Source: Spirochaetales bacterium
GTDB taxonomy: Bacteria; Spirochaetota; Spirochaetia; JABEVK01
NCBI GenBank assembly: GCA_037142615.1
Contig: JBAXAI010000051.1
Span: 1 to 22,219 of the forward strand
Length of the DNA stretch: 22,219 bases
Direction: 5' to 3'
Numbering within the stretch: the stretch's first letter is position 1; every line of letters begins with the position of its first letter. The notes under the pieces are model-generated. The model saw only the letters and a program-made list of their open reading frames with translations. It did no database searches and was not told the origin of the DNA. A program made the position numbers and the translations under genes. This document shows positions 1 to 15,706 of this stretch, in pieces.

Positions 1-81
1 ATCACCGTTCAGCATTAGTGGGAATTCGCGTCCGCTACTCCGACAGGCTCCTAGCAGCGCCGCTAGAGTTCTTCGTAACAT
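1..81 (-). CDS. 5' end of a gene (MLRRTLAALLGACRSSG...) running off the window edge; probably an exported protein, possibly interrupted after about codon 10
   Basis: ATG at 81-79 preceded by GATTCGGAGGTGAATC, the same leader/SD as the beta-barrel genes at 3418 and 9923; basic then hydrophobic N-terminus; frame open to position 1. Confidence 0.5.
   Translation of the reverse strand, partial: MLRRTLAALLGACRSSGREFPLMLNGD
36..54. mobile_element. possible terminal inverted repeat of an IS/MITE (TACTCCGACAGGCTC) next to a CTAG target
   Basis: Reads CTAG-GAGCCTGTCGGAGTA on the minus strand, resembling (from memory) termini of CTAG-targeting IS5-like elements; the signal-peptide-like run of the 81-start gene breaks here; the other end is not visible. 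Confidence 0.3.
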
Positions 82-97
82 GATTCACCTCCGAATC
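78..97. repeat. 20-bp leader/RBS repeat, copy A (ACATGATTCACCTCCGAATC)
   Basis: Identical to 3415-3434; 18 bp also match 9920-9937. Confidence 0.9.
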
Positions 98-115
98 TTT
101 TTGATCCAAACGTTC

Positions 116-193
116 TTCGAAAAGCTCCAGCTGACCACCCTGGCCGACCTCCTCAAGTGGGGGATCAAGGCCGGGGTGATCGTGCTGGATTGA
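116..193 (+). pseudogene. C-terminal fragment of a LuxR/NarL-family HTH regulator
   Basis: Translates FEKLQLTTLADLLKWGIKAGVIVLD*, resembling the final helices of GerE/LuxR domains; no upstream recognition helix or receiver domain. Confidence 0.6.
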
Positions 194-194
194 A

Positions 195-2852
195 CTAGAA
201 CTTCAGAACGCGGTTGCCGATGTAGTCGGCGACCCAAATGTGTCCGGTGGAATCCACCGCCACGCCTTCCGGGTCACGGAACGTGCTTGCTGACGCAGTG
301 CCGGTCACGGTCGAGGTGAAGTCCGGTGCCCCCAGGACCTTGTCAGCCGGAGTCAGAGAAGTGGTGGGGATGCTGTTGTAGATGTAGATTCGTGAGCCTG
401 CTGTCCCGCCTCCCATTGGAACGGCGACCAATAGCCGGCCAAACTTGTCGACCGTGAGTTTCACATTCATTGACCCATTGAAGTTGAGCCTGGCTGCATC
501 GAAATCAACGTTGGTTCTGCTGGACATGTCTGACTGTCCGATCACAACGTCCGCTGCCTGGCCGTACGTCGTGGGGAACGAGTTCCAAACCAAGATGCGG
601 TTGTTGCCTTGGTCCAGCACCAAGACCTTGGTGCCGTCGCTCCAGACCTGCGTGGGATAACGTAGCGTACTCGAATTGGTGGTCGACGAGAAGGTGTTGG
701 CCGATGAAGGAGTAGTGAAACCGGACTGACCCAGCACCATATCGGCGGCCTGGTTATTGTTCGTGGGGATGGAGTTATAGATCAGCACGCGGTGATAGGA
801 GAAGTCGGCGACGAGGAGTTTTGTACCGACGATGGCAACGCCATAGGGATCCATGCTCGATGCTGAGGTCGCGGGGATACCGCTGGTGACATAATCGGAG
901 TGCCCCAAGACCACGTCGGCAGGCTGACCATCCGAGGTCGGGATCGTGTTCCAGATGAGCACACGGGCGTTCCCTTGGTCTGCTACCACGAGGTGGGTAC
1001 CGTCACTGGCAACACCCTGGGGGGCGCTCAATCCCGACTGGGTTGTTGCGGCAAGAGAACTGGTCTTGTTGCTTTGACCAACGACAACATCGCAGCTCTG
1101 GTAGGTCGAGGTAGGAATGCTGTTGTAAATCAAGACCCTGTTGCCAACGATGCTAGTGACGAAAAGTTTCCCACCGGCAAAGACCAGGTCATTCGGGCGG
1201 GCGATGGTCTTGGCGTTCGTGCCGCTGCTACTTGAGGTGAAATCGGCCTGCCCCAGCACCAACGAGGCGCTCATGCCGTTAGTCAGCACAGGCATCGTCG
1301 ATGCCTTCACCGTGACAGAAAAAGTCTTCGTGACCGAGGTGCCGCCCGTCATGCTGAACGTTGCGGTCAGGGTCACTGTGGCGTCGGTCGAAGTCGGCTG
1401 AGTCACGGTGCCGGTGGTCGAAATCACGCTGGTGTCGCTCGACGCCCACGTGATCGTGGTTCCGCTATCGCCAGAGGTCGGCAGAGTCAGGTTGCCGGTG
1501 ACGTTGGACGTGTCCGCGTTGCTCCCCAGTATCGAGGTGGAGGTCAGGGCCGCCTTATCGTCGGCAAGGGCTTCGGTAGGGTCGCTCGACAGGGGCTGGA
1601 CCACGATGGTGAACGTCTTTGTTTCGGAGGTGCCGCCAGATTTGGTGACGGTCGCGGTCAGGGTGACGGTTTTGGGGCTGCCTCCGACGGCAGGCCGGGT
1701 GATGGTGCCGCCCGTACTGACCGTTCCGGGATCGCTCGAAGTCCAGGTGATTGCGGTGCCGCCGGGTCCTGCTGTTGGTAAGGTCAAGTCGCTGGTCACC
1801 ACGTCGAGTCCCTGGCTGGTCCCCTTGATCACGTTGTCCACCAAGGTTGCCTGGTCGTCGGCAATGGCTTCGGTGGCGTCCGCCGGAGTGGCCTCGACGG
1901 TGACGGTGAAAGTCTTGGTAGTCGTGGTGGTGCCGTTGGTGATGGTGGCCGTGAGAGTGACGGTCTTGGACGCTTCACCGATGCCGGGCCGAGTGAGGAT
2001 TCCGCTGGTTCCAATGGTGCCTGTCGGGTCGGAGCTCCAACTGATGGACGAGCCGCCGGGGCCACTGGTCGGAAGGTAGAGAGGTCCCTTCAGGTGCCCC
2101 AGGTCGGGGCTTCCACCCGCCAGCAGGGCCGACGTGAGGGCGGCCTTGTCGTCAGCGGCAGCAGTCGCCGAGTCGCTCGACATCGGCTGCACAATCACGG
2201 TGAAGGTCTTGGTCTCCTGCGTACCGCCCGACTTGGTGAGGGTCGCGGTCAGCACGACGGTCTTGGCGGGCTGGCCGGCAGCAGGCCTGCTGACGTTGCC
2301 CGACGACGAGAGGGTACCGGCCGTGTCACTGGCCCAGCTGATCGTGGTCCCGCTCGGACCCTTGGAGGGCAGGTTCAGCGGACCTTTGACGGTGTTCAGG
2401 TCGGCGTTGGGTCCCTTGAGAATGGCCTCGACCAGCGTGGCCTTGTCGTCGGTGATGGCCACGGTCGGGTCGCTGGGGATCGCCGTGACCTTGACCGTGA
2501 AGGTCTTGGTGGCCGTGACGCCGTTCTTGGTGATCGTGGCCGTGAGAGTGACCGTCGCGTCGGCCGCGCCGACCTCTGGTCGGGTCACCACGCCGGTGGC
2601 CGACACAGTCCCCGGGGTGTCGCTGCTCCACGTGACCGTGGTGTCGTTGGTGCCGAGCTCGGGCAGCAGCAGGTTGCCCTTGACCGCGCTCAGGTCGGCC
2701 TGTCCGGCGCCGATGAGCGCTGGAGTCAGGCTGTTGGCGGTCGAGACGCCGTCCGGGCTCAGCCCGCCGGCGGTCAGATCATTGATCATGTTCGAGCAGG
2801 CGCTCAGGGCCAGCAGGCCCAGGGCCGTGGCAAGGGTTGCGAGGAGTTTCAT
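195..2852 (-). CDS. 885-aa surface lipoprotein: lipobox, five Ig-like (atrophied Big-type) repeats, C-terminal NHL-repeat beta-propeller
   Basis: MKLLATLATALGLLALSA-C lipobox; ATG overlaps the upstream stop (ATGA 2852-2849); five ~95-100 aa repeats LxLPxxGxxxxxI/VxWxS...VxLTAT...TKTFxVxV; C-terminal repeats such as VADQGNARVLIWNTIPT..ADVVLG. Confidence 0.88.
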   Translation of the reverse strand: MKLLATLATALGLLALSACSNMINDLTAGGLSPDGVSTANSLTPALIGAGQADLSAVKGNLLLPELGTNDTTVTWSSDTPGTVSATGVVTRPEVGAADATVTLTATITKNGVTATKTFTVKVTAIPSDPTVAITDDKATLVEAILKGPNADLNTVKGPLNLPSKGPSGTTISWASDTAGTLSSSGNVSRPAAGQPAKTVVLTATLTKSGGTQETKTFTVIVQPMSSDSATAAADDKAALTSALLAGGSPDLGHLKGPLYLPTSGPGGSSISWSSDPTGTIGTSGILTRPGIGEASKTVTLTATITNGTTTTTKTFTVTVEATPADATEAIADDQATLVDNVIKGTSQGLDVVTSDLTLPTAGPGGTAITWTSSDPGTVSTGGTITRPAVGGSPKTVTLTATVTKSGGTSETKTFTIVVQPLSSDPTEALADDKAALTSTSILGSNADTSNVTGNLTLPTSGDSGTTITWASSDTSVISTTGTVTQPTSTDATVTLTATFSMTGGTSVTKTFSVTVKASTMPVLTNGMSASLVLGQADFTSSSSGTNAKTIARPNDLVFAGGKLFVTSIVGNRVLIYNSIPTSTYQSCDVVVGQSNKTSSLAATTQSGLSAPQGVASDGTHLVVADQGNARVLIWNTIPTSDGQPADVVLGHSDYVTSGIPATSASSMDPYGVAIVGTKLLVADFSYHRVLIYNSIPTNNNQAADMVLGQSGFTTPSSANTFSSTTNSSTLRYPTQVWSDGTKVLVLDQGNNRILVWNSFPTTYGQAADVVIGQSDMSSRTNVDFDAARLNFNGSMNVKLTVDKFGRLLVAVPMGGGTAGSRIYIYNSIPTTSLTPADKVLGAPDFTSTVTGTASASTFRDPEGVAVDSTGHIWVADYIGNRVLKF
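1295..2720 (-). repeat. five tandem Ig-like domain coding repeats (~290-300 bp unit; boundaries approximate)
   Basis: Recurring DDK/QAxL, LxLP, WxS, VTLTAT and TKTF motifs in the translation. Confidence 0.85.
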
Positions 2853-3418
2853 AGCGTGACCCCCAGGATGGTGGTGAACAGGAAGCCCGAGTTGCTGGTC
2901 TCGGCGAACCACTGGAAGCCGGGGCTGACGAAGAACGCCACCGGCAAGCCGTCAACCTTGTATTGAGCCCGTACCTCGGTGGTGACCAGCGAGTCGTAGT
3001 ACAGGGCGCTCGAGGCAGTGTTGGCCAAGGGCAAGGTGCCGCTGAAGAGCGTGATCAGACCGCCGTAGCCGACCAGAGGCCGCACGCTGAGCCCCGGAAG
3101 AACCTCTTTGAGGTCGAAGTCGAAGCAGACGTTGAGCGACCATGGGATGCTGATCAGGCTGGTGGTGGCCGCACTCGTGCCGATCCAGTACACCGCTCCC
3201 GCCGCCACCTGGAAGCCCAGCGGTTCCAGCCCGGGGGCCTGCAACTGCGGGTTCATCGTGACCCGGGCGTCGAGCCCGGCGCCAAAAGGGGTCACGGAGG
3301 CAAAAGTGCCCACCGGCACGGCAGCGGTCGCCCCAAACTCAATTTCCAGGGCGCTGGCCAACGGCCCGCCCAGCAAGAACAAAGCCGCCAACAGGGGCAA
3401 TAAACGACGGATCGACAT
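2849..3418 (-). CDS. 189-aa exported protein, predicted small outer-membrane beta-barrel (copy 1)
   Basis: Signal peptide ending ASA; alternating amphipathic strands (ISIPWSLNVCFDF, LSVRPLVGYGG, TTEVRAQYKV, FLFTTILGVTL at the C-terminus); strong SD GGAGGTGA. Confidence 0.75.
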   Translation of the reverse strand: MSIRRLLPLLAALFLLGGPLASALEIEFGATAAVPVGTFASVTPFGAGLDARVTMNPQLQAPGLEPLGFQVAAGAVYWIGTSAATTSLISIPWSLNVCFDFDLKEVLPGLSVRPLVGYGGLITLFSGTLPLANTASSALYYDSLVTTEVRAQYKVDGLPVAFFVSPGFQWFAETSNSGFLFTTILGVTL

Positions 3419-3432
3419 GATTCACCTCCGAA
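3003..3432. repeat. 430-bp perfect direct repeat, copy 1 (partner 9508-9937)
   Basis: No mismatch found on by-eye comparison at offset 6505; first mismatches at 3002/9507 and 3433/9938. Confidence 0.9.
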
Positions 3433-3440
3433 TCATGTTA

Positions 3441-3487
3441 ACCCTACTGCACATGTTGGAGTTTTCGACATCGTAGAACTACGATGT
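3441..3487 (-). promoter_or_regulatory. putative activator-dependent promoter: -10 TAGGGT (3446-3441) and palindrome ACATCGTAG-AA-CTACGATGT (3468-3487)
   Basis: Palindrome core conserved at 9973-9988 at nearly the same distance from a similar -10, while the intervening sequence differs. Confidence 0.65.
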
Positions 3488-3508
3488 TGGGTGGGGGAAA
3501 CTACGCGC

Positions 3509-3540
3509 TTGCCTAATTTGACCAATTTGACTAGTTTTGA
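3509..3540 (+). promoter_or_regulatory. TA promoter TTGCCT-17-TAGTTT with tandem operator-like repeats AATTTGACC/AATTTGACT
   Basis: Sigma70-like spacing; direct repeats overlap the spacer and -10, as is common for antitoxin autoregulation. Confidence 0.6.
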
Positions 3541-3555
3541 TTGACGAGGCCCACC

Positions 3556-3780
3556 ATGCAAACCGCCACCGTGTACGAAGCCAAGACCAACCTTTCGAGC
3601 CTGATCAAGCAGGTGGAGCAGTCGCACGAGCGCATTGTGATCACCAAGCACGGCCACCCGGTGGCGGAACTGGGCCCTGTGACACGGAAGTCCCGTCTGG
3701 TCACTGACCCGCAATTGGCGGCCCTTCGCATGGACTACGACCCGACGTTGCCCACCGAGGAAGAATGGGGACCGCTATGA
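3556..3780 (+). CDS. Phd/YefM-family antitoxin
   Basis: MQTATVYEAKTNLSSLIKQVE...IVITKHGHPVAEL motif; GAGG SD; stop overlaps the toxin start. Confidence 0.92.
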   Translation: MQTATVYEAKTNLSSLIKQVEQSHERIVITKHGHPVAELGPVTRKSRLVTDPQLAALRMDYDPTLPTEEEWGPL

Positions 3781-4163
3781 AGAACCTGCTACTCGACACC
3801 TGCGCGCTGTTGTGGTTGGCCTCGGCCGACGCGGCGTTGTCACAAAGGGCAAGGTCGAGAATTGAGGACGCCGAACTGGTCTACGTGTCAGCGATTTCGG
3901 CCTGGGAAGTCGCGCTCAAGGCCAAAAAGGGCGAATTGGTGCTGCCAATCTCTGCCGATGAATGGTTCCGGCGCGCCGTGGAACAACACGGCATTGTGGT
4001 TCTCGCGTTGGGGACCGACGACCTGCTCGCGTCGGTGGCCCTCCCCGACCATCACCGCGATCCTGCCGACCGCTTTATTCTGGCCCAAGCCCTCGCGCAT
4101 GACCTGTGCGTCGTGACCTCCGACGCGATGTTTGCCAAGTATGGCGTCGAGACGGTGGTTTGA
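3777..4163 (+). CDS. vapC: VapC-family PIN-domain toxin
   Basis: LLLDTCALLW, YVSAISAWEV, HRDPADRFILAQA and VVTSD PIN motifs; ATGA coupling. Confidence 0.92.
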   Translation: MKNLLLDTCALLWLASADAALSQRARSRIEDAELVYVSAISAWEVALKAKKGELVLPISADEWFRRAVEQHGIVVLALGTDDLLASVALPDHHRDPADRFILAQALAHDLCVVTSDAMFAKYGVETVV

Positions 4164-4188
4164 CGAAAAAAGAGAACGCGGTTATACT
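4160..4188 (+). promoter_or_regulatory. near-consensus sigma70 promoter TTGACG-17-TATACT for the second TA module
   Basis: -35 at 4160-4165, -10 at 4183-4188, AGGAG SD at 4196-4200. Confidence 0.75.
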
Positions 4189-4206
4189 CCTACATAGGAG
4201 TACCTT

Positions 4207-4533
4207 GTGAACGCCTTCGGGATCAAAGCCTTGCAGACAAACCCCTCGCTGCTCACCAAGTCTTTCGAGGCCGGCGAGTATTCACTGATCACAAAGCACG
4301 GGAACCCGATCGGGTTGGCTATTGGCTTCGATTCCCTGGTGATCGACGAAGGTCTCAAACGGTTCCTTGCCATCAAGGCCTTCGCCTCGGGCGACCTGAG
4401 CTTGGGCGAGTTGGCGCGGTGCCTGGGCCAGGATCGCGAGGCGACCATGCTGACTCTGGATGCCCTGGGAATTCCTGTCGCCGACTATGACTTTTCCGAG
4501 GACCTCAAAACCCTCGGAGCCTTGGGTTTGTGA
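4207..4533 (+). CDS. UPF0175-family putative antitoxin with a Phd-like N-terminus
   Basis: FASGDLSLGELARCLG...LDALGIPVADY motif; N-terminal SLITKHGNPIG; GTG start with AGGAG. Confidence 0.8.
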   Translation: MNAFGIKALQTNPSLLTKSFEAGEYSLITKHGNPIGLAIGFDSLVIDEGLKRFLAIKAFASGDLSLGELARCLGQDREATMLTLDALGIPVADYDFSEDLKTLGALGL

Positions 4534-5018
4534 AAGCCCTCGTCGCCGACGCGACAGCTCTCCTTGTTCTCGCCAAGCTGGGGAAGCTGAACCTCCTGAA
4601 CCTCGTGTTCGATCAGGTTCTCGTGCCGTCGCAAGTGCTGGCTGAAGTTCGGCGCAAACCAGACCACGAAGCCGCCGTCTGGAACCAACCGTGGTTAACT
4701 CTGACCAATGGCACCCGAGAAAGCCGGTACCACGAACTTTGCCGCGTGCTCGACCCGGGCGAGAGCGAGGCCCTTGCGCTTGCCGTCCGGGAATCTCTCC
4801 CCCTGCTGATCGACGAGCGAAAAGGACGCACGGTGGCAACCCGGTTGGGCGTCGCCGTCGTGGGACTTTTGGGAATCCTTGTTGCACTGGTTCGGTCCGG
4901 CGGGCTTTCCGCTGACGAGGCGATTGCGCTGGTAGCGAAGGCACGGTCTCAGGGCTTTCGGGTCTCCGAAAGCCTGTACCAACAATTTGTCGAAGCTGTG
5001 CGATCGGTTCTGATATAG
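4530..5018 (+). CDS. DUF3368-containing PIN-like putative toxin (COG2405 type)
   Basis: VADATALLVL, LDPGESEALALA, LLIDERKGR, GLLGIL and GFRVSE motifs; GTGA overlap with the partner gene. Confidence 0.88.
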   Translation: MKALVADATALLVLAKLGKLNLLNLVFDQVLVPSQVLAEVRRKPDHEAAVWNQPWLTLTNGTRESRYHELCRVLDPGESEALALAVRESLPLLIDERKGRTVATRLGVAVVGLLGILVALVRSGGLSADEAIALVAKARSQGFRVSESLYQQFVEAVRSVLI

Positions 5019-5019
5019 A

Positions 5020-6015
5020 ACCGGGGCAACGTACCTGAGCGCCGACCATCCCCTCTTGAGTTCCGCGCCGTTGTTCGACTGGGTGGAGCGCCTGTTCCAA
5101 AAGGGCGTGCAACGGGTTCTGGTCGACGAAGTGCACCAGGCCAACCACTGGAGCTCGTCCCTCAAGGCACTTTACGACAGCTATCCCGACAAGTCTCTGT
5201 GGGCCTCAGGTTCCAGTTCGGTGCTTCTGGAAACCGGCGTTGCGGACCTTTCACGCCGCTTCCCCACCTACCGTATGCCCTTCCTCTCGTTCCGCGAGTT
5301 TCTGGTGCTCACCGGCTCGCCCGATTTCGGCGTGCACGATCCCTTTGCCCCCGACCAAAGCTGGGCCACAGCCGTGCTCAAGCAGGTGAACGTCCTGGCC
5401 CGCTTCGAGGAATTCCTGCAGAGGGGGAGCCGGCCCTTTTTCCTTGAGGGGGAGGCCAGCTACGGCATCAAGGTTCTTCAGACCATTCAGAAGACGCTGG
5501 AGTCCGACATTCCGCACTTGGTGGCCTCATTGCAGGTCAACCATCTGCACCTGATGAACGCCATTCTGGGGCACCTCGCCCAGGCTCCGATACCGACACT
5601 GGCGGTCAACTCGCTGTGCCGCGACTGGTCGCTCGGCAAAGAAAAACTGTACCAATTGCTGCAGGCTCTCGAACGGACGGGTGTGCTCCACGTGGTGCGC
5701 AAAGCCTCCGATCACGCCGCCGCGTCGGTCGGGGCCAAGATCTTTTTCGCCGACCCAAACCTGTATTCCGTACTCGCGGGAAAGGAGGGAAACACCCGCG
5801 AGGCCTACGTGGTGTCTGCGCTTCGCGACGCCGGGCGGCAGGTACAAGCCTCGACGGATGAAACCAAGGCCGACTTTGTGATCGATGGCCGGTTCACCGC
5901 AGAGGTCGGCGGGGCGCGCAAACACCACAAGGCCGCCGACTTCGTGCTCCGCGATGGCGCCGACTGGCCCGCCCCTGGCGTCATCCCGTTGTGGATGCTC
6001 GGGTTTGGGCATTGA
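5020..6015 (+). pseudogene. 5'-truncated AAA_14/DUF4143-type ATPase
   Basis: Has YLSADHP, Walker B VLVDEVH, SGSS, DLSRR and KIFFADP, but no Walker A; in-frame stop at 5011-5013 just upstream. Confidence 0.75.
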
Positions 6016-6024
6016 GGGATGTTC

Positions 6025-7314
6025 CTAGGCAAGGAGAAACCTGCGGATGGGCAGCACCCGGATTTCCTTTTCGCCCACGCGAATCAACTCGTCGGTGTCC
6101 CAGGTGATCAAGGTTGCCGTCGCCAGACCTTCCTCGTCCATGGCTTGGAGCAACGCCCTGACCTCGCGTGTACGCGCTTCGTCGTTCAAGTCCCACGCAA
6201 CCTGAATCAAGGCTGTTGCCTGATCTCCGCCGACGCGAAAGTCGACCTCGTAACCGCTTTTTGTTCGCAAGTAGTGAAGCGGCGCGGCCCGGCGCTTCAG
6301 ATGGCAGAACACGAGGTTTTCGAGCAGATACCCCCGCTTTTCGCTGAACGACGCGTCGCACGACACCGCCAGCGCGTGGTCCACCATATAGATCTTGCGG
6401 GCATTCACGTTCTGTTTGGCCAACGAACGGTCCCATAGCCGCACCGAGAACAGCACAAAGGCGTCCTCCAGCCAAGTCAGAACGTCGCTGACGAAATCCT
6501 TTTGCACCTTGAAACCGAGGCTGCGCAAATATTCGGTCAGCCGGTTGAGGGTATACAGGTTGGCCACGCTGGAAACCAGCTTTTCCGTGAGCTTGAGAAC
6601 GGCCTGCGGATGTGCGCAGTCGTGACGCTCGATGATGTCGCGGTACACCATGGTGCGCAGGTATTCCTGGTGAATGGCAACCCGGAGCTGGGAGCTCCCT
6701 TCGCGAACCTCGGGAAAACCGCCGCGCTCCCAGTAGTCTGTAAAGGCGTGGCGGACCAGCGATTCGTGCTTTGTGCCCGGCCGGTTCGCCTCGACCCCTC
6801 GGAAACGGAGGAACTCAGCGAGGCTGAATGGCCAGAGTTCACCGGTAAGCGCCCGCCCTCGCAACTCGGTGGCGATTTCGCGCGACAAAAGACGGGCCGA
6901 CGAACCCGTCAAGTAAAGCTGAACCCGCTCGGTGCGCAAAAAACGCTCGACGAAGAGCTCCCAACCGGTGGCTTCCTGGATCTCGTCGAAAAACGCGTAG
7001 ACCAGCTCCGAGCCGCGCTTTGACGGGAACAGACCGTAGTAGGCCGTCAGAATCAGCTCAAAGTCACCAGCACGCACCGCCTTGAGCCGGTCGTCCTGAA
7101 AGTTCACAAACAGGAAGTTCTCGCGGGCAACACCCTGAGCCAGCTTGTCGGTGGCAATCTGGTTCAAGAACGTCGACTTGCCCGCACGGCGCGGGCCGAT
7201 GCACACAAACACCTTCTTGGCCGCTTCCAGCGGCTCCAAAGTGCGGCGAACCGGGGGAGGCGCCAGCTGTGCCTGGCTGTCAACAATCAGATCGCGAAGG
7301 GTGTCGACTTCCAT
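6025..7314 (-). CDS. AAA_14 ATPase with DUF4143 and C-terminal nuclease-like fold (COG1373 type)
   Basis: Walker A GPRRAGKST, Walker B FFDEIQ, TGSS, GGFPE, KIYMVD, ENLVF, EVDF...IQV. Confidence 0.92.
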   Translation of the reverse strand: MEVDTLRDLIVDSQAQLAPPPVRRTLEPLEAAKKVFVCIGPRRAGKSTFLNQIATDKLAQGVARENFLFVNFQDDRLKAVRAGDFELILTAYYGLFPSKRGSELVYAFFDEIQEATGWELFVERFLRTERVQLYLTGSSARLLSREIATELRGRALTGELWPFSLAEFLRFRGVEANRPGTKHESLVRHAFTDYWERGGFPEVREGSSQLRVAIHQEYLRTMVYRDIIERHDCAHPQAVLKLTEKLVSSVANLYTLNRLTEYLRSLGFKVQKDFVSDVLTWLEDAFVLFSVRLWDRSLAKQNVNARKIYMVDHALAVSCDASFSEKRGYLLENLVFCHLKRRAAPLHYLRTKSGYEVDFRVGGDQATALIQVAWDLNDEARTREVRALLQAMDEEGLATATLITWDTDELIRVGEKEIRVLPIRRFLLA

Positions 7315-7340
7315 AGTGGTGGAATTATACACCGATTACG

Positions 7341-7374
7341 AAACAAAGTGGAAGGAAATCCTTCCACTTTGTTT
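7341..7374. promoter_or_regulatory. perfect 16-bp-arm inverted repeat (operator and/or terminator)
   Basis: AAACAAAGTGGAAGGA-AA-TCCTTCCACTTTGTTT; lies just after the lipoprotein stop (7399) and over the -35 region belonging to TATAAT at 7329-7324. Confidence 0.7.
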
Positions 7375-7398
7375 TCGTTAGAACCCCGGCCGCGAGCC

Positions 7399-9357
7399 TT
7401 ACGGAACCTGGACGATGTCGGTGGCGTTGGAGGTACCGGAGATTCCCGGCAAGCCGGTCCACACGCCGTCTTTCCAGTAGCCGGCCTGAACGACGTTACT
7501 CGAATCCGTTGAGCTTCCGACCATGTAGAAGCTGGTACCGAACAGGGCCACCTTCCTGACCGAGCTTTCTTTCGTGGCATCGAGGGGCGTCACTGCGGTC
7601 CAGACTTGGTTCTTCCAGTAACCGGGAACCCGGACCATGCTCACGTTGTACGAGGTGCCACCGACATAGACGTCGGAGCCAGAAATCGCCAGTGACCCTA
7701 CACTCGACGACCTTGCGGTATCAAGGAAGGGAAGCTCGACGGCAGCGCCGCCATCGGTCCACAGAACGGCTCTGTCAACAACGCCAGCCGTTTGGCTGGT
7801 GCCTGCGCCGTAGATGTGCCCGCCCACGACGGCCAAAGTCAGACAACGGTTGTAGTGGCCACTGCTGAGCGCCGGCAGGGCAAGCCAAACGTCGTTCTTC
7901 CAGTAGCCGGGAATCTCGAGCCCTGCGGAACCTTGACTCACACCAAAAACGTAGATGTCGCTTCCATCGGCGAGGATCCCTTCGACCTCGTGGTACTTGG
8001 TGGCATCGAGCCTCGGCAGATTGAACCATGTGCCATTCTTCCAGTAGCCGGGGAGTTCATCGTTAACGCCTTGCGAGGAGTTCCCCGCCACATAGACATC
8101 AGTGCCGACGACAACCATGCCAGCAACTCTTGAACTTCTGGTTGCACTGACGCCCGGGAGTCCTACCCAGGTGCCATTCTTCCAGTAACCAGCAATCATG
8201 ATGTCGCTGCTGTTCGTGCTGGTTCCCGCGAAATACAAGTCTGTTCCATCGAAATACGCTCCAGACACAAAAGCCATTTTCGCCACCGATATCGGTGGCA
8301 ATGCGGTCCAAACACCGTCTTTCCAATAGCCAGGAACAATCACCCCACTGGCATTGGTGCTGGTACCTGCCACGTAAAGACCCGCAGTAACCGTGCTCGT
8401 CGTGGCTTTGACGGTGAAGGGAAACACCTTTGTCGCGGTGGACGTGCCCGAGGTGATGGTAGCGGTCAGCGTCACAGCGACGGCGGCGTCATCCTTGGCC
8501 GGTCGCTTCACCGCACCGGTGTTGCTGATCACCGCCGTGTTGCTCGACGACCAGGCAATGGTGGTCCCGCTGGCACCGCTGGTGGGCAGGGTGAGGTCGC
8601 CGGAGACGTTGGTGGCGGCCGCGTTGCCGCTGCCGAGCACCGAGGCCATGGTCAAGTTCGCCTTGTCGTCAGCAACGGCCACCACAGGGTCGTTCGAAAT
8701 CGGCTGCACCACCACCGTGAACTTCTTGGTCTCCTGAGTCCCGCTCGCCTTGGTGATCGTCGCCGTCAGCGTGACTGTCGCAGCGGTTCCTCCCGCAGCC
8801 GGGCGCGTGACCGCTCCCGAAGTGCTGACGGCCGCATTGTCGCTGGTCCAGCTGATGGTCGTCCCGCTGGGTCCGGTGGTCGGCAGCGTCAGCGGGCCCT
8901 TGGTGTTGGCAAGGTCGGCGTTGGGTCCCTTCAGAATGGCGTCGACCAAGGTGGCCTTGTCGTCGGCGATGGCCACCACGGGGTCACTGGGGACGGCCGT
9001 GACCGTGACAGTGAAGGTCTTGGTGGAGGTGACGCCGTTCTTGGTGATGGTCGCGGTGAGAACCACCGGAGTGTCGGTTGCTTGGCGGGTCACGGCTCCG
9101 GATGCCGACACAACGGCAGCATTGTTGCTGCTCCAAGTGACGGTGGTGTCATTGGTGCCAAGCTCGGGCAGCAGCAGGTTTCCTTTGACGGCAGCCAGGT
9201 CGGTCTGACCCGCGCCGATCAGCGCAGTCGTAAGGCTGTTGGCCGTGGCGATACCGTCGGGCGGCAGTCCGCCGGCCGTCAGGTCGCTGATCATGTTCGA
9301 GCACGAACCCAGCGCCAGCAGGCCGAGCGCGGCGACAAGTGTGGTGAGAAGTTTCAT
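7399..9357 (-). CDS. 652-aa surface lipoprotein: lipobox, three Ig-like repeats, C-terminal 7-repeat GYWKNG-type beta-propeller
   Basis: MKLLTTLVAALGLLALGS-C; ATGA overlap with the barrel gene; N-terminus paralogous to the 195-2852 protein; seven ~47-aa repeats YxxGxS...GYWKxxxWxxLP (one degenerate). Confidence 0.88.
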   Translation of the reverse strand: MKLLTTLVAALGLLALGSCSNMISDLTAGGLPPDGIATANSLTTALIGAGQTDLAAVKGNLLLPELGTNDTTVTWSSNNAAVVSASGAVTRQATDTPVVLTATITKNGVTSTKTFTVTVTAVPSDPVVAIADDKATLVDAILKGPNADLANTKGPLTLPTTGPSGTTISWTSDNAAVSTSGAVTRPAAGGTAATVTLTATITKASGTQETKKFTVVVQPISNDPVVAVADDKANLTMASVLGSGNAAATNVSGDLTLPTSGASGTTIAWSSSNTAVISNTGAVKRPAKDDAAVAVTLTATITSGTSTATKVFPFTVKATTSTVTAGLYVAGTSTNASGVIVPGYWKDGVWTALPPISVAKMAFVSGAYFDGTDLYFAGTSTNSSDIMIAGYWKNGTWVGLPGVSATRSSRVAGMVVVGTDVYVAGNSSQGVNDELPGYWKNGTWFNLPRLDATKYHEVEGILADGSDIYVFGVSQGSAGLEIPGYWKNDVWLALPALSSGHYNRCLTLAVVGGHIYGAGTSQTAGVVDRAVLWTDGGAAVELPFLDTARSSSVGSLAISGSDVYVGGTSYNVSMVRVPGYWKNQVWTAVTPLDATKESSVRKVALFGTSFYMVGSSTDSSNVVQAGYWKDGVWTGLPGISGTSNATDIVQVP

Positions 9358-9923
9358 AGTGTGACCCCCAGGATGGTTGTGAACAGGAAGCCCTGCTGGC
9401 CGGTCTCGGTGAACCACTGGAAGCCGGGGCTGACGAAGAACGCTACCGGCAGGCCCTCGATCTTGTACTGGGCCCGAACCTCGGTGGTGACCAGCGAGTC
9501 GTAGTAAAGGGCGCTCGAGGCAGTGTTGGCCAAGGGCAAGGTGCCGCTGAAGAGCGTGATCAGACCGCCGTAGCCGACCAGAGGCCGCACGCTGAGCCCC
9601 GGAAGAACCTCTTTGAGGTCGAAGTCGAAGCAGACGTTGAGCGACCATGGGATGCTGATCAGGCTGGTGGTGGCCGCACTCGTGCCGATCCAGTACACCG
9701 CTCCCGCCGCCACCTGGAAGCCCAGCGGTTCCAGCCCGGGGGCCTGCAACTGCGGGTTCATCGTGACCCGGGCGTCGAGCCCGGCGCCAAAAGGGGTCAC
9801 GGAGGCAAAAGTGCCCACCGGCACGGCAGCGGTCGCCCCAAACTCAATTTCCAGGGCGCTGGCCAACGGCCCGCCCAGCAAGAACAAAGCCGCCAACAGG
9901 GGCAATAAACGACGGATCGACAT
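9354..9923 (-). CDS. 189-aa predicted outer-membrane beta-barrel (copy 2)
   Basis: Identical to copy 1 except near the C-terminus (KIEG vs KVDG; TETGQQG vs AETSNSG). Confidence 0.75.
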   Translation of the reverse strand: MSIRRLLPLLAALFLLGGPLASALEIEFGATAAVPVGTFASVTPFGAGLDARVTMNPQLQAPGLEPLGFQVAAGAVYWIGTSAATTSLISIPWSLNVCFDFDLKEVLPGLSVRPLVGYGGLITLFSGTLPLANTASSALYYDSLVTTEVRAQYKIEGLPVAFFVSPGFQWFTETGQQGFLFTTILGVTL

Positions 9924-9937
9924 GATTCACCTCCGAA
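9508..9937. repeat. 430-bp perfect direct repeat, copy 2
   Basis: Matches 3003-3432. Confidence 0.9.
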
Positions 9938-9944
9938 ACAGATA

Positions 9945-9988
9945 AGCCTAGTGAATGTCCATCAACTTCGTTATCGTAGAACTACGAT
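9945..9988 (-). promoter_or_regulatory. putative promoter: -10 TAGGCT (9950-9945) and palindrome ATCGTAG-AA-CTACGAT (9973-9988)
   Basis: Conserved with 3441-3487. Confidence 0.65.
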
Positions 9989-10090
9989 CTTGGGCGGAGG
10001 AAACTGCGACCCCGGTTCGTCGTGCTCTTGCCAAGTCGAACTGACTCGTTCCTTCTTGCACTGTTGTAGCTACTAGGTTAGGATAGCGAC

Positions 10091-10489
10091 ATGCGATTTC
10101 ACCTTGCCATCAGTCTGATTCTGCTGGGAGCCTTCCCGTTGTTGGCCCAGAACTCCAGCGTGCCGGCGACGCTTGCCTCGGTCACTTCCGAGCTCGACTC
10201 GCTCCTTACCGACCTCGAGGCCAACCAAACCCGGACGCTCGAGCTGCAAGCCAAGCTTTCTGAACTCGAAGCGCTGTCGGCCACCCACCTGGCAGCCCTG
10301 AACGAACAGGGTCAGCAATTGGCCGCCTACGAGCAGTCTGTGCACGCGCTCGAGGCGCACGACCGTCAAACCCTCGAACTCCTGTCGACCGAGCGGGTGT
10401 TCAGTTCGTGGCTGGTCCCCGTCGCGGTCAGTGCCTCGGCGCTCGCCGCTCTCGAAGCCGTGCTTCTGCTTGTGGTGGTTTCGCGATGA
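10091..10489 (+). CDS. hypothetical protein: signal peptide, coiled coil, C-terminal TM helix
   Basis: Hydrophobic N- and C-termini with heptad Leu pattern; upstream TTGCAC-17-TAGGAT. Confidence 0.75.
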   Translation: MRFHLAISLILLGAFPLLAQNSSVPATLASVTSELDSLLTDLEANQTRTLELQAKLSELEALSATHLAALNEQGQQLAAYEQSVHALEAHDRQTLELLSTERVFSSWLVPVAVSASALAALEAVLLLVVVSR

Positions 10490-10818
10490 AACGCTTGTTT
10501 CCCGTTGCCGCCGTGTTCATCGCCGGGGTCATCGCAGGCGCCTTGGCCTTCAAAGGTTTTGAAATGGTCACCGTCGAGGCCGCGTTCCAGCAGCAAAAGT
10601 CCGAGCTGGTCCAGCTTCGCACGGAACTCCGCGACCAGGAGAAGACCCTCGAGGCCTCCCGACTGCGGGTCTCCGAAAGCGCTGCCGCGTTGCACGACAA
10701 GGTCGGCGCGGCCAATGCCCAGGCAGCGCAGGTCGTCGCTGCGCAAGGTTCAGCCGTCGAACGCCTGAAAAAGGTGCTCGCCGTGCTCAAGCAGTTGGAA
10801 CAGGACCTTAAGCCCTGA
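10486..10818 (+). CDS. hypothetical protein: N-terminal TM anchor plus coiled coil (110 aa)
   Basis: MKRLFPVAAVFIAGVIAGALAF then an A/E/Q/K-rich helix; ATGA overlap with the upstream gene. Confidence 0.75.
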   Translation: MKRLFPVAAVFIAGVIAGALAFKGFEMVTVEAAFQQQKSELVQLRTELRDQEKTLEASRLRVSESAAALHDKVGAANAQAAQVVAAQGSAVERLKKVLAVLKQLEQDLKP

Positions 10819-11626
10819 CGGTGTCGGCGATGGGCCCGAAACCCATGCGCATGCGCAGCGTGACGACCTGGTCGGTAGCGCGCATGATCGCGTAGTCGAA
10901 CACCCGGAGGTTGCCAGAAGCCTCCGGCAGCGCTTCGCGGAGGATAATGGTGAACTTTTCGCCGCAGAACATCTCGGCCAGGTAGTTCACGTCCAAGAAG
11001 GCCGGACGATGGGCCCTCAAAAAAGCAAAATCGTGGCGGTCGAGGCACCAACCCAGCGAGTTGACATTGCCCACGTGCCCGTTGAGGTCGATGTCTTCCC
11101 ACGTGGCCCACACGCTGTGCGTCACCCGGGCCAGCGACTCCGCCAGCCCCTGGGCTTCGGGCGCGTTTTCGAGCGGGGGCAGCGACGGCGGCACTTCGGC
11201 CAGCGGATCCTCGGCCTGCATCGGCGTGTAGATTTTGGTGTAAGGCTCCGGTCTTTGCGGTTTTCGATCCTTCAGGACCACCCACGCGGTGCTTGAGCGG
11301 CCGCACCAGCCCAGCTCTTCGGTGCCGAAGCGGAAGTCGCGCAGGGCCAGCACCGCCTTGGTGCCCCGGGTCCAGGTGTCGACGGTCAGGTCGCAGGGCC
11401 ACGTGGGCCAGGTGCGGAACTCGACGCTCATGCGCGACAGCACCCAGAAAATGCCCTGATCGAAGTGCTCGCGGAAGTCCCAGCCCAAGCTCGCGGTGTG
11501 GTCGCCTGCCTGGCTCTGCACCAGCTTGATCAGAGACGTGAAACGAAGCGCGCCGGTCGCGTCGGCCTCGGCGTAGGGGATGGCGTATTGCCCGCGGAAA
11601 ACGCCAGGGAGGGGGGAACCCAACAT
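10808..11626 (-). CDS. acyl-ACP thioesterase (FatA/B-like, double hotdog fold)
   Basis: YAEADATG, FWVLSRMSVEF, TVDTW, EDIDLNGHVGN and VNYLAE motifs. Confidence 0.88.
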   Translation of the reverse strand: MLGSPLPGVFRGQYAIPYAEADATGALRFTSLIKLVQSQAGDHTASLGWDFREHFDQGIFWVLSRMSVEFRTWPTWPCDLTVDTWTRGTKAVLALRDFRFGTEELGWCGRSSTAWVVLKDRKPQRPEPYTKIYTPMQAEDPLAEVPPSLPPLENAPEAQGLAESLARVTHSVWATWEDIDLNGHVGNVNSLGWCLDRHDFAFLRAHRPAFLDVNYLAEMFCGEKFTIILREALPEASGNLRVFDYAIMRATDQVVTLRMRMGFGPIADTVRA

Positions 11627-11627
11627 G

Positions 11628-12011
11628 TCATTCCTCCTGGCAGGCCGAGGCTGCCTTTTCGAACAAGCGGGTCAGTCTCTGATTGCCTTCTGCCGTCGGC
11701 TCGAGCAGTTCGAGCGCAACCTGCCGGTCGGGGCCCTCGGTGTCGAGGAGCCTCACCACCCTGGCCTCCACTTGAAACGGAAGGCTCAAACCGTCTTCCA
11801 CCATGTCGAGCAGCACCGCCAGCTTGGTGCCGAGCGGCAATGGTTCCCGGGTGCGGCACAAAAGCCCTCCCTCCGAAAAGTTGAGGGTTTCGGCATGGAC
11901 CGTGCCCTCGTGACCGAAGTCGAGGCGAACCATCTGGCAAATGCGGTAGCGTGGAGAACGACGGAGTTCCTGCATGGGCTTCAGTGTAACCCCTGCCGTG
12001 GCGTGGCTCAA
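11628..12011 (-). CDS. PilZ-domain c-di-GMP receptor (alternative start at 11975)
   Basis: RRSPR (RxxxR) and NFSEGG (D/NxSxGG) motifs. Confidence 0.85.
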   Translation of the reverse strand: MSHATAGVTLKPMQELRRSPRYRICQMVRLDFGHEGTVHAETLNFSEGGLLCRTREPLPLGTKLAVLLDMVEDGLSLPFQVEARVVRLLDTEGPDRQVALELLEPTAEGNQRLTRLFEKAASACQEE

Positions 12012-13039
12012 GGGAAAGTGATGGTCAGCGCTTGCGAAGCCTTGTCTCGCTCGAGACGACCATCGCCCTGCTGGATGAGCGCGTCCAGCAGGTCCCGGGC
12101 GGGGGTTCGCTCATCGCCCTGCCAGGCACAAACCGACAGGTCAGAACTCAGCCGCATGGCGTAGTTGCCCGCCTCCTTCTGGAAACGGAAGGTCAGCCAG
12201 TGGCTGTCCTCGGGATCAACGCACAGCCGGGCCATCGAGGTCAGCAGTTCGTTGACGACAAGGCCCATGGTAAAGGCAGCCCCCGGTGCCAGGGGGAGGT
12301 CTTCGATCTCCAGCTTTAAGTTCAGCATTCGCTCGAGCCCGAAAACCTGAAGGTTGTGCCGCAGCAAGTTGGTGAAGAACGACGCCGAGCCGATCGACGA
12401 GGTATTGGCCGCGTCGTGCACTTCGTCCTGGATCAGCGCGAGCGTGTGCAGCCGGTTCTGGCTTTCGGCAAGCATTGCCGCCACTTCGGGGTTAGGTGCC
12501 GCCTCCTGTTGCAGTCCCAAAAGGATCAGCATGACCTGGAGGTTGTTCTTGACGCGGTGGTGCACCTCGGCCAGCAACAGGTCCTTTTCGGCCAATTGAC
12601 GGGTCAGCTCGGCGGTTCTGTCGGCGATGTCGGCCTCAAGGCGGGCCTGGTACTGGTCTTTCTGTTGCAACAGCTCGGACCGTTCGGCCAAACGTTCCAG
12701 AATGGGTGGCAGGATCTCGAGGCTGGGGAAGGGTTTGATCAGAAACTCCCACGCACCCAGCTTCAGCGCCTGCGTGGCTTCGCGGATGTCGTTGGTTCCC
12801 GACATGGTGACAAAGGGCGTGTAGGGAGCGCTTGCCTTCACCTCGGCGAGCACGGCCATGCCACCTCCGTGGGGCATCCGAAGGTCGCACACCACCGCGT
12901 CGGGCTTGTGCTCGTGGAACAGTCGTTTACCCTCTTCGGCATCGCCTGCGCACAGCACCCGATAGCCAGCCCGGCTCAGAAAGGCGTCGAACAGCAGGAG
13001 GATGGTATCGTCATCGTCGATCACCAGCAGCGATTTCAC
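12008..13039 (-). CDS. receiver domain plus HisKA_2-type kinase domain with degenerate ATPase lobe
   Basis: VIDDD...CDLRMP...FLIKPF receiver; EVHHRVKNNLQ H-box; no DxGxG or GxGL boxes. Confidence 0.85.
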   Translation of the reverse strand: MKSLLVIDDDDTILLLFDAFLSRAGYRVLCAGDAEEGKRLFHEHKPDAVVCDLRMPHGGGMAVLAEVKASAPYTPFVTMSGTNDIREATQALKLGAWEFLIKPFPSLEILPPILERLAERSELLQQKDQYQARLEADIADRTAELTRQLAEKDLLLAEVHHRVKNNLQVMLILLGLQQEAAPNPEVAAMLAESQNRLHTLALIQDEVHDAANTSSIGSASFFTNLLRHNLQVFGLERMLNLKLEIEDLPLAPGAAFTMGLVVNELLTSMARLCVDPEDSHWLTFRFQKEAGNYAMRLSSDLSVCAWQGDERTPARDLLDALIQQGDGRLERDKASQALTITFP

Positions 13040-13089
13040 AGCTTCCCCTAGAATAGACCGTGTGGCGGAAATCCGCTACCATACTGGCA

Positions 13090-13545
13090 ATGATTGCCGA
13101 AAATTTCCCCGCCCCCGACTTCACCCTGCCCGACCAGGACGGACGCCTGCTTTCGTTGTCGGACTTCCGCGGTTTTCACGTCGTCGTTTTCTTTTACCCT
13201 GCGGACGACACGCCAGTGTGCACAAAAGAAGCCTGCGCGCTGCGCGATGGCTACGCCGACCTGCGAGCGAGCAACACCGTTGTACTCGGTGTGAGCCCGG
13301 ACGACGGGGCCAGCCACCGCAAGTTCCGAGCCAAGTACAACTTGCCCTTTGCGTTGCTTTCCGATCCGGAAAAAGTCGTCCTCACCGCGTGGGGCGCCTG
13401 GGGCGAAAAGACCCTGTACGGCAACAAGGTGACTGGCGTGCTGCGAAGCACCGTCGTTATCGGCCCCGACGGCCTCATCAAGAAGCACATCAAACGGGTC
13501 GACACCGCCAAAGCTGCCCTGCAGGGGCTGCCTTACCTGAAGTAG
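13090..13545 (+). CDS. bcp: BCP/PrxQ peroxiredoxin
   Basis: APDFTLPDQDG, FYPADDTPVCTKEAC, GVSPD, FRAKYNLPFALLSD. Confidence 0.92.
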   Translation: MIAENFPAPDFTLPDQDGRLLSLSDFRGFHVVVFFYPADDTPVCTKEACALRDGYADLRASNTVVLGVSPDDGASHRKFRAKYNLPFALLSDPEKVVLTAWGAWGEKTLYGNKVTGVLRSTVVIGPDGLIKKHIKRVDTAKAALQGLPYLK

Positions 13546-13603
13546 GCGTAACTTGCACTCCAGTCATCGCGGATTCCGCCGATGGTTGGGAGGGGAGGGG
13601 GGA

Positions 13604-13819
13604 ATGCGCTGTTCGAGACCTTGGGGCACAGTCTTGGCCGGTTTTGTTCTCACCGCTTTGGTTTCGGGCTGCGCCACGCTCCCCGAAGAGACCTCGTACC
13701 GGCAAAACAGCAACACCACCGTGCACACCAACCGCTTTGGCGTGGTGTACATTGAGCAGCTTGTCCCCGACCCCTGGGGAGAACCCATCACGGTCCGCTA
13801 CATCGTCGACAAAAATTAG
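13604..13819 (+). CDS. small hypothetical lipoprotein (71 aa)
   Basis: GGAGG SD; hydrophobic stretch ending VSG-C. Confidence 0.6.
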   Translation: MRCSRPWGTVLAGFVLTALVSGCATLPEETSYRQNSNTTVHTNRFGVVYIEQLVPDPWGEPITVRYIVDKN

Positions 13820-13822
13820 CGG

Positions 13823-15610: not shown

Positions 15611-15616
15611 CGCGCC

Positions 15617-15645: not shown

Positions 15646-15706
15646 GCCGACGACCCTCGCACCGGCCTTCTGGTCAAAGTCCGCTTTTCCGGTATATGCC
15701 TCTGGC

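Follow-up and report, generated by a model that had tools for sequence, protein, structure and literature searches.

A conserved spirochaetal gene cassette that pairs a small predicted outer-membrane barrel with a tagged, modular lipoprotein

Introduction

What does a small outer-membrane barrel do for a large lipoprotein that is encoded directly behind it? This question is raised by contig JBAXAI010000051.1 (contig C51) of a Spirochaetales bacterium, whose genome comprises 4.27 Mb in 76 contigs (GenBank assembly GCA_037142615.1). The whole contig, 22,219 nucleotides in length, was analysed and is called the window here. Two cassette units lie on its minus strand, unit 1 at 195-3418 and unit 2 at 7399-9923, and in both of them the stop codon of a 189-aa barrel gene and the ATG of a lipoprotein gene overlap as ATGA. 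A preliminary description, made from the letters of the window alone, had reported these two units in the same orientation and read them as a polymorphic surface adhesin or receptor system; what it observed was confirmed in every particular. The window, or more than half of its sampled words, was matched by seven runs labelled freshwater metagenome.

The placement of spirochaete lipoproteins on or off the cell surface is only partly understood. The known routes elsewhere are large machines or general porins, namely Slam, LptD-linked export, and RcsF with porins. In this study the two-gene arrangement was found as a conserved cassette whose lipoproteins share a short N-terminal tag. We propose that the barrel is a dedicated dock for tagged, modular lipoproteins, with which the tag would form a complex, and we give this reading a probability of about one half.

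Organization of the two units

The genes and domains of the two units are as follows.

2849-3418, minus strand: barrel gene 1, 189 aa; signal peptide (residues 1-23), then a predicted 8-stranded outer-membrane beta-barrel (AlphaFold2, Foldseek)
195-2852, minus strand: lipoprotein gene 1, 885 aa; signal peptide, lipobox LSA followed by C; codon of Cys19 at 2796-2798
2763-2798, minus strand: tag of lipoprotein 1, mature N-terminus CSNMINDLTAGG, fitting C-S-[NDEG]-[MLFI]-[MILF]
1293-2741 (approximate), minus strand: stalk of lipoprotein 1, five aBig_2 (PF20578) domains (Pfam E 1.1e-113, 5 stretches)
198-1292 (approximate), minus strand: tip of lipoprotein 1, NHL-repeat region (Pfam NHL E 1.1e-14)
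9354-9923, minus strand: barrel gene 2, 189 aa, with 6 residues different from barrel 1
7399-9357, minus strand: lipoprotein gene 2, 652 aa; lipobox LGS followed by C; ATGA overlap with barrel gene 2
9268-9303, minus strand: tag of lipoprotein 2, CSNMISDLTAGG
about 8398-9246, minus strand: stalk of lipoprotein 2, three aBig_2 domains
about 7402-8397, minus strand: tip of lipoprotein 2, 47-aa 'PGYWKNGxW' repeats

The lengths of 885 and 652 aa are counted from the ATG that overlaps the barrel stop. A GGAGGTG ribosome site lies 5 nt upstream of the ATG of barrel gene 1. The signal peptide of the barrel ends in ASA, followed by LE, and the mature barrel has 166 residues. Both lipoproteins carry the lipobox [LVI][ASTVI][GAS]C, with MKLLATLATALGLLALSA and MKLLTTLVAALGLLALGS directly before the cysteine, and their lipidation is predicted from sequence. 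The mature N-termini of lipoproteins 1 and 2 are CSNMINDLTAGGLSPDG and CSNMISDLTAGGLPPDG, respectively. Repeat units resembling 'GNRVLIYNSIPT' are seen in the translation of the lipoprotein 1 tip, and this NHL-repeat region is probably a beta-propeller. The tip of lipoprotein 2 gave only a sub-threshold Kelch match in Pfam, and no solved relative was found for it by sequence search of the PDB.

Conservation of the pairing

A total of 401 genomes of the same class were surveyed by profile search; all loci were fetched and the downstream gene was tabulated by script. The barrel family was found at 44 places in 34 of these genomes, representing 25 of the 156 genera of the class. Two places are located at contig ends, so that 42 were assessable. 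At 35 of the 42, a lipoprotein gene starts between -4 and +89 nt after the barrel stop, the median gap at the loci outside the window being about 11 nt. The tag C-S-[NDEG]-[MLFI]-[MILF] is present on 32 of the 35 adjacent lipoproteins, i.e. at 32 of the 42 assessable places, and the three lipoproteins outside this pattern begin CKDDL, CSRLI, and CNDFD. We define the cassette as a barrel-family gene with a lipoprotein of this mature start encoded downstream, at most 100 nt away and in the same orientation, and both units of the window belong to it. As a control for position, a lipobox was found in only 3 of 32 upstream open reading frames on the same strand.

The loci are related by descent and the pairing counts are not independent trials. 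The weight lies on the adjacency having been kept while the barrels of the other loci have diverged to only 20-28% identity with the window barrels and the body of the partner has been replaced many times. Comparison of the sequences confirms that the cassette is conserved in spirochaetes and is not a local accident.

The tag and the modular body

A total of 36 partner lipoproteins were tabulated. Position 1 is Cys in all 36, position 2 is Ser in 34, and position 3 is Asn or Asp in 30 (Gly in 4). Met occupies position 4 in 26 partners (Phe in 5, Leu in 3), and Leu, Met or Ile occupies position 5 in 34; Asp or Glu is found at position 7 in 17 and Leu or Met at position 8 in 20. In all, 33 of the 36 fit C-S-[NDEG]-[MLFI]-[MILF]. 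The bodies behind the tag are of many kinds, including aBig_2, BspA-type LRR_5, Lcl_C (DUF1566), PKD/K319L, Flg_new and DUF285 domains assigned by Pfam, and further Big_12, YDG/MBG, FG-GAP, fn3 and dockerin-like repeats, to which the window adds NHL and an unnamed repeat tip. Towards the C-terminus the partners fall into many Pfam families without mutual relation, and it is the N-terminus that they share.

Lipoproteins 1 and 2 of the window are 67% identical over their first ~320 residues, which comprise the tag and three aBig_2 domains, and are unrelated beyond. A relative from the same genus combines the window tag CSNMINDLTANG with a long aBig_2 stalk like that of lipoprotein 1 and a 'GYWKNG' tip like that of lipoprotein 2; stalk length and tip therefore recombine among close relatives, and the exchangeable stalk and tip of the preliminary description are borne out. 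The sub-types of the tag also track those of the barrel. Stand-alone barrels are paired with CSNM[IL]x[DE]L, proteins with OmpA_C and a barrel with CS[DNE]M[LM]TxxPNR, and barrels in 276-404-aa forms with CSDMME[KR][LM]G. This match fits a cassette that would be inherited as a unit.

Restriction of the tag to barrel-adjacent lipoproteins

The distribution of the tag was examined within genomes. A crude scan of the genome that contains the window gave 286 lipoprotein candidates, among which CSNM is the commonest four-residue start (5 cases). All four lipoproteins with the full tag follow a barrel-family gene, two of them in the window and two on contig C10. A fifth lipoprotein, beginning CSNMWGPM (contig C5), has no barrel upstream. 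In two further genomes (G046 and G137), 19 DNA matches to the back-translated tag were found, three of them in the context of a signal peptide and lipobox; the pattern demanded Met at +4 and Asn or Asp at +3, so that variant tags are outside this count. All three lie directly after a barrel gene, and their number equals that of the barrels found in the two genomes. The tag is restricted to barrel-adjacent lipoproteins in the three genomes checked. The conserved lipoprotein N-terminus that had been pointed out earlier in the window has thus turned out to be a cassette-specific tag, on the evidence of both the class survey and these counts.

The cassettes on contig C10 (284-835 and 2834-3322; L040) are two divergent tandem copies at the contig start, with barrels matching at E 1.7e-16 and 1.3e-12. 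CSNMLTDL and CSNMLTEL are the mature starts of their partners. Two aBig_2 domains are present in the partner that is complete, and the other, truncated by the end of the contig, has a similar beginning. A sixth lipoprotein of the genome, beginning CSNFNLAGD, follows a 195-aa signal-peptide protein with an ATGA overlap on contig C29. Homology of this 195-aa protein to the barrel family was not detected by hhalign (probability 7%), and its Atlas model aligns to OMP_b-brl barrels with a TM-score of 0.68-0.82. The pair is possibly an analogous fifth cassette. In the same locus (3425-5946; L041), the CSNFNLAGD lipoprotein has 645 aa with SBBP propeller repeats, and a 1070-aa repeat lipoprotein is encoded just upstream.

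These counts bear on a reading without any contact between the two proteins, in which the tag is a sorting or export signal for a general machine (for example an LptD-type flippase, as proposed for Borrelia, or the lipoprotein export signal pathway of Bacteroidota) and the barrel is no more than co-expressed, acting for instance as a small channel or as a structural protein of the outer membrane. Such a reading has precedents, in that export signals right after the lipidated Cys are described in Bacteroidota (PMC5080379, bioRxiv 10.64898/2026.10.03.756453) and an LptD homologue is implicated in Borrelia (bioRxiv 10.1101/2022.12.21.521298), and the adjacency could be inherited passively. However, a general signal should mark many lipoproteins, and the tag occurs only on barrel-adjacent ones (4 of 4 and 3 of 3). 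The general sorting signal is disfavoured because the genome-wide tag counts match the barrels 1:1. The pairing also outlasts the divergence of the barrel to 20-28% identity and the full replacement of the partner body, and the predicted complex of barrel and lipoprotein, described below, scored 0.50 above its controls, though in the weak class. We regard a general signal with a merely co-expressed barrel as quite improbable.

Fold and family of the small protein

The preliminary description called the 189-aa protein barrel-like, and the structural models agree with this call. In the AlphaFold2 model (9-row alignment; mean pLDDT 82.2, pTM 0.74), eight strands follow straight after the signal peptide, at residues 24-36, 45-55, 67-79, 85-99, 110-127, 137-154, 161-173, and 176-188. 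The mature protein begins at strand 1 in this model; the window barrels lack a periplasmic domain and have hardly any loops, those on the face that is extracellular by standard topology having 8, 5, 9, and 2 residues. By the strand pattern of the model, E25, E27, D50, R52 and R111 are predicted to face inward. Foldseek against the PDB gave the OmpA transmembrane domain, Ail, NspA, OprF-N, and OmpX at E 2.9e-6 to 5.5e-5, with TM-scores by target of 0.61-0.67; 24 matches reached E <=0.001, and OmpW/OprG and PagL came next. The barrel of the family relative P0109 was likewise modelled with 8 strands, at a pLDDT of about 95. The small protein thus models as an 8-stranded outer-membrane barrel of the OmpA/OmpX/Ail-like type.

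The window barrels match no Pfam (E <=0.01) or NCBIfam model at cut-off. The best curated model is OMP_b-brl, with 20.3 bits on a relative against a cut-off of 28.7, and a genome-wide search with PF13505 (OMP_b-brl) does not pick up the window barrels. No solved relative was found with the barrel profile among PDB sequences, where the only match was Opa at E 0.037. A profile search of 1.84 billion representative proteins gave 230 clusters at E <=1e-3, 65 of them at <=1e-10. A word-based homologue search returned only 4 close relatives, and a single-protein query for related loci returned one locus, on a contig of the same genus. By these profile searches the barrel family is small and without a name, in line with the earlier remark that the pair was not recognised as a named system.

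The size of the barrel bears on a further alternative, that it is itself a Slam-like (type XI secretion) translocon for its lipoprotein. An outer-membrane protein gene beside the gene of its lipoprotein resembles the reported Slam loci (PMC5449769 and PMC9090332). Against this, the window barrels are modelled with 8 strands, hardly any loops and no domain in the periplasm, no Pfam match was obtained at E <=0.01 and hence none to Slam/DUF560, and the partners share no C-terminal barrel domain. The barrel had already been judged probably too narrow for a monomeric translocon, and with 8 strands it is too small for a Slam-like one, as is established for barrels of the OmpA/OmpX class. The idea is hardly credible. 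As a candidate, the Slam-like translocon was rejected, with 8 strands and neither DUF560 nor TPR.

Predicted complex of barrel and lipoprotein

The input to the complex prediction was the barrel in its mature form, with an alignment of 40 rows, and residues 1-110 of mature lipoprotein 1, with an alignment of 8 rows. The outcome is in the weak-support class, with a score of 0.51 (0.47-0.56 among runs) and a best of three controls at 0.01; no interface was returned. In the calibration of the tool, 116 of 157 solved complexes passed the mark, as did 2 of 215 mismatched pairs; only 18 of the 157 solved complexes, and both passing mismatches, did so at scores of <=0.60. Our own alignments were used, so that this calibration is roughly valid only. 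The runs share at least 96% of contacts, and the pLDDT of the partner is at least 82. The co-folding of the barrel with the lipoprotein N-terminus, which had been suggested as a check, has thus separated the pair from its controls and has not delivered an interface.

Natural fusions and the orientation of the barrel

Further domains are fused to the barrel in a number of relatives. OmpA_C (Pfam and NCBIfam) is found before the barrel in some of them, and P0009 also has a weak PKD match there (E 0.0025-0.0055, below cut-off). An OmpA_C-like part after the barrel, in the classical OmpA order, is present in P0075, P0087, P0128, and P0141, as read from sequence only. Passengers follow directly after the barrel in P0109 (aBig_2 repeats) and P0027 (Big_5 and Laminin_G_3), with no lipobox between barrel and passenger, and precede it in P0077 (cadherin-like, CHB_HEX_C_1 and Fn3_assoc). 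These natural fusions show the same predicted barrel anchoring adhesin-type domains in cis.

By standard topology, both termini of 8-stranded barrels are periplasmic, and the OmpA_C fusions, as assigned by domain search, agree with this orientation. Passengers fused to the barrel would in that case face the periplasm, which speaks against surface display unless their chain passed back through the barrel or alongside it. The domain families of the partners and their long stalks, on the other hand, argue for a predicted location at the cell surface.

On the periplasmic side, the barrel might be merely a transmembrane anchor of the lipoprotein or an organiser of envelope architecture. This view takes up the standard topology, the fused passengers directly after the last strand, and the long forms with OmpA_C before the barrel, whose partners carry PKD domains (in P0009, the sub-cut-off PKD match as well). 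Many treponemal lipoproteins are also reported to be periplasmic (PMC7521688). Nevertheless, a stalk of five domains and a propeller tip in a protein of 885 aa are typical of surface proteins, as are BspA-type LRR, Flg_new, Lcl_C, and dockerin-like partners, and the rapid exchange of tip and stalk between close relatives fits outward-facing selection. We consider a complex at the periplasmic face rather unlikely.

The domains of the partners are of extracellular types though the barrel termini are periplasmic, and a threaded 'split inverse autotransporter' could reconcile the two. Here the acylated Cys would sit in the inner leaflet and the tag and tether would run through or plug the barrel; BAM would fold the barrel around a tag and tether of 10-20 residues, in the manner proposed for RcsF with OmpA/C/F, and stalk and tip would reach the surface, forming a self-contained surface-display device. 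In the aligned partners, 10-20 residues of tag and tether precede the first folded domain, which by estimate is about the length needed to cross a barrel. The single-chain fusions to aBig_2 or to Big_5/Laminin_G_3 have the domain order of intimin and invasin, and the reported complexes of RcsF with outer-membrane proteins (PMC4942254 and PMC7553776) offer a precedent. On the other side, the lumens of OmpA/OmpX-class 8-stranded barrels are established as narrow and filled with polar side chains, and the strand pattern of the model points E25, E27, D50, R52 and R111 inward. The fold of the fusion P0109 gave a confident barrel with a linker at pLDDT 30-64 (linker and passenger together 24-65), which gives no information on threading and so no support for it, and the complex prediction returned no interface. 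Threading of this kind is unlikely in our judgement.

At three loci in other genomes of the class (L013, L017, and L018), the barrel is C-terminal in proteins of 520-560 aa. The L013 protein, the only one of the three that was scanned, has an N-terminal OmpA_C peptidoglycan-binding domain (Pfam and NCBIfam). The partners at these loci begin CS[DNE]M[LM]TxxPNR and carry PKD domains. An arrangement of the L013 type would link the lipoprotein to the cell wall via the barrel protein.

Relation of the two copies

The two barrels of the window were described earlier as nearly identical, and they differ in 6 of 189 residues, all within the last 35. At the DNA level a perfect tract is shared:

3003-3432 and 9508-9937, minus strand: identical tract, 430 nt at 100%; ribosome site and first 416 nt of the barrel gene

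Identity is 100% from -14 to +415 relative to the ATG and 89% over the last 154 nt to the stop, and falls to about 71-80% on entering the lipoprotein gene. A duplicate at such identity is far beyond chance, and the perfect 430-nt tract indicates, from the pattern of identity, a probable recent gene conversion or duplication within one genome. The near-identity of the window barrels is therefore no evidence of functional constraint, since such evidence is supplied by the comparison with other genomes and not by the copies in the window. One contig of a DNA run joins 1675 to 1931, so that 255 nt of the aBig_2 stalk are skipped and 12 other letters stand instead; this is possibly a stalk-length variant in the population, the supporting side having 21 letters against a reliability bound of 30.

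Expression and the upstream palindrome

Contigs of three metatranscriptome libraries (two samples of one study) cover 1-3417 and parts of 7068-9423. The junctions between barrel and lipoprotein genes are bridged by RNA-library contigs at 2783-3417 (X2), 2757-3396 (X6), and 9176-9423 (X2), and these contigs are compatible with expression and co-transcription. Positions 3471-6940 and 9717-10400 have no RNA-library cover and are covered by the DNA run; they were not used as evidence for silent intervening genes or for an RNA signal without DNA.

Promoter and terminator scans gave nothing above shuffles. A short element is present upstream of both barrel genes:

3464-3505, minus strand: upstream element of unit 1, with the palindrome TCGTAG-AA-CTACGA at 3471-3484, about 55-65 nt before the barrel ATG
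9967-10008, minus strand: upstream element of unit 2, with the same palindrome at 9974-9987

The two elements are 86% identical, and the intergenic DNA around them cannot be aligned. Only four copies of the palindrome TCGTAG-(AA/TT)-CTACGA exist in the 4.27-Mb genome, each of them upstream of an envelope or aBig_2 lipoprotein gene. The other two are at 81985 and 87214 on contig C16 (L043), about 160 nt upstream of envelope genes. From this distribution, the palindrome is a candidate operator of a small surface-protein regulon. One of these C16 genes codes for 939 aa that, as read from sequence, comprise a barrel-like N-terminus, repeats of Ig type and an end resembling OmpA_C, and it is followed by an aBig_2-like lipoprotein; the other palindrome precedes a further aBig_2-like lipoprotein.

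Neighbouring genes

In the spacer between the units (3433-7332), a PIN-domain gene is found at 3765-4163 and a UPF0175/PIN pair at 4207-5018; two AAA_14 genes come next, one truncated (5056-6015) and the other, on the minus strand, encoding a full AAA_14/DUF4143 ATPase (6025-7332). By their domains these genes look like toxin-antitoxin or mobile content, with no apparent relation to the cassette. The region 10808-22218 is ordinary and encodes an acyl-ACP thioesterase, a PilZ protein, a response regulator/HisKA_2 kinase, ABC-3-type transporter genes, an M20 peptidase, purK/purE, and two-component signalling genes.

Proposed mechanism

In the proposed mechanism, gene 1 encodes the compact barrel, modelled with 8 strands in the outer membrane, and gene 2, translationally coupled to it, the lipoprotein. 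The first 5-8 mature residues of the lipoprotein, C-S-N/D-M-I/L/M-x-D/E-L, are the cassette-specific tag, and behind them domains of adhesin type are exchanged freely; in the window these are an aBig_2 stalk and a tip that is either NHL or of another propeller-like kind. Production of the two proteins would be matched in amount, and they would assemble 1:1 in the outer membrane, where the lipidated tag would dock on or in its own barrel. The barrel would then be a dedicated integral-membrane dock that holds a long binding protein, and it possibly helps to expose the lipoprotein at the surface. We infer the physical contact (from a weak-class prediction), the outer-membrane location of both proteins, the surface exposure, and any role of the barrel in export. 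Among the variants of the mechanism, docking at the surface is ranked first, either with an outer-leaflet lipid or with a threaded tether, followed by the split inverse autotransporter and then by the complex at the periplasmic face.

Several observations weigh against a dedicated dock. Seven of the 42 assessable places have no downstream lipoprotein, and all seven belong to the 17 least significant matches (E 9e-13 or weaker). No fewer than three of them (L032, L086, and L087) are 554-572-aa proteins with an N-terminal barrel; the end of the L032 sequence resembles the OmpA_C-bearing fusions, and a CSDMI lipoprotein is encoded 425 nt upstream of it. Another partnerless place (L084) holds only a fragment with a frameshift. 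Of the 18 places fetched from other classes of the phylum, 14 have no partner; the family there consists mostly of 330-390-aa proteins with a C-terminal barrel, and the four partners present all begin CSNM or CSGM. The expectation of the preliminary description that barrel homologues adjoin such lipoproteins thus held within the class and failed for most places outside it. Since the family is found in only 34 of the 401 class genomes, it cannot be a general lipoprotein pathway. Cassettes inherited as units would keep both adjacency and tag even if another machine read the tag. The contact of barrel and lipoprotein is suggested by one weak-class prediction without an interface, and the library contigs cannot prove a single transcript, DNA carry-over being possible.

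The cassette offers a compact test case, with one mature barrel of 166 residues, one tag of 5-8 residues, and a body swapped among more than 10 domain families. If the barrel is a dock or an aid to export, this would explain how long adhesin-like proteins are held in the membrane more firmly than by lipid alone, and would provide a sequence rule to predict such spirochaete envelope proteins and a portable two-part display module. A bolder form of the idea is an interlocked pair, in which the tag is captured in or on its private barrel as BAM folds it, and which carries stalk and tip across the outer membrane and holds them there under load, i.e. a two-piece, lipid-anchored inverse autotransporter. 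We give this form a minor chance; were it true, lipoproteins would reach the surface by a route that is not known from any bacterium, and this would offer an approach to how spirochaetes expose theirs. If the barrel is a passive neighbour, the finding shrinks to a lineage-specific operon of an unnamed OmpX-like family.

Comparison with known systems

The nearest structural class is that of OmpA, OmpX, Ail, NspA and OmpW, which has the same fold and size as the modelled cassette barrel; the cassette barrel differs in its very short loops, and its family is marked by the co-encoded tagged lipoprotein. Slam offers the nearest genetic arrangement, an outer-membrane protein gene adjoining that of the lipoprotein it serves. 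Its DUF560 barrel has 14 strands and is joined to a TPR domain in the periplasm, and it reads the C-terminal barrel domain of its substrates, whereas the cassette barrel is predicted to be 8-stranded without TPR and the element shared by the partners is the N-terminal tag. The surface lipoproteins adjacent to Slam, TbpB, fHbp and HpuA, are reported to be variable (PMC5449769 and PMC9090332).

Inverse autotransporters (intimin/invasin, type Ve) resemble the cassette in having an N-terminal barrel, an Ig-like stalk and a tip, and the fusions P0109 and P0027 are in the same order. The intimin barrel has 12 strands with the linker inside and is part of a single polypeptide. The cassette, in contrast, has an 8-stranded barrel by prediction, usually consists of two polypeptides, has a passenger with its own lipid anchor, and gives no IAT_beta match in Pfam. 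Myxococcus TraA/TraB is an analogy, as a polymorphic surface receptor co-encoded with an OmpA-family partner; there is no homology to the cassette barrel or receptor. The NCBIfam model exchanger_TraB matches the OmpA_C part of the long-form relatives at E 4e-11 to 3e-10, far below cut-off. TraA is anchored by a C-terminal MYXO-CTERM sorting tag and not by an N-terminal lipobox tag. In Treponema pallidum, four stand-alone 8-stranded barrels are part of the OMPeome, and the portion of that source available (PMC8407342) makes no mention of partner lipoproteins.

No published description of the pair of barrel and tagged lipoprotein was found in a full-text literature search, which left most subscription journals outside. 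The window proteins have no Pfam match to RcsF or OmpA_membrane, and the lipoproteins give only aBig_2, NHL, and a weak Kelch match. The nearest mechanistic precedent is RcsF with OmpA, OmpC and OmpF in Enterobacteria, where an unstructured N-terminal segment of a lipoprotein is associated with a barrel. This segment is reported to associate with outer-membrane barrels including the 8-stranded OmpA, and the complex to place parts of RcsF on either side of the membrane (PMC4942254 and PMC7553776). The barrels used by RcsF are abundant general porins, whereas the cassette barrel is private and co-encoded. RcsF, moreover, is a stress sensor of small size, and its folded domain is periplasmic. The cassette is real, conserved and apparently undescribed, and it belongs with these partnerships of lipoproteins and barrels.

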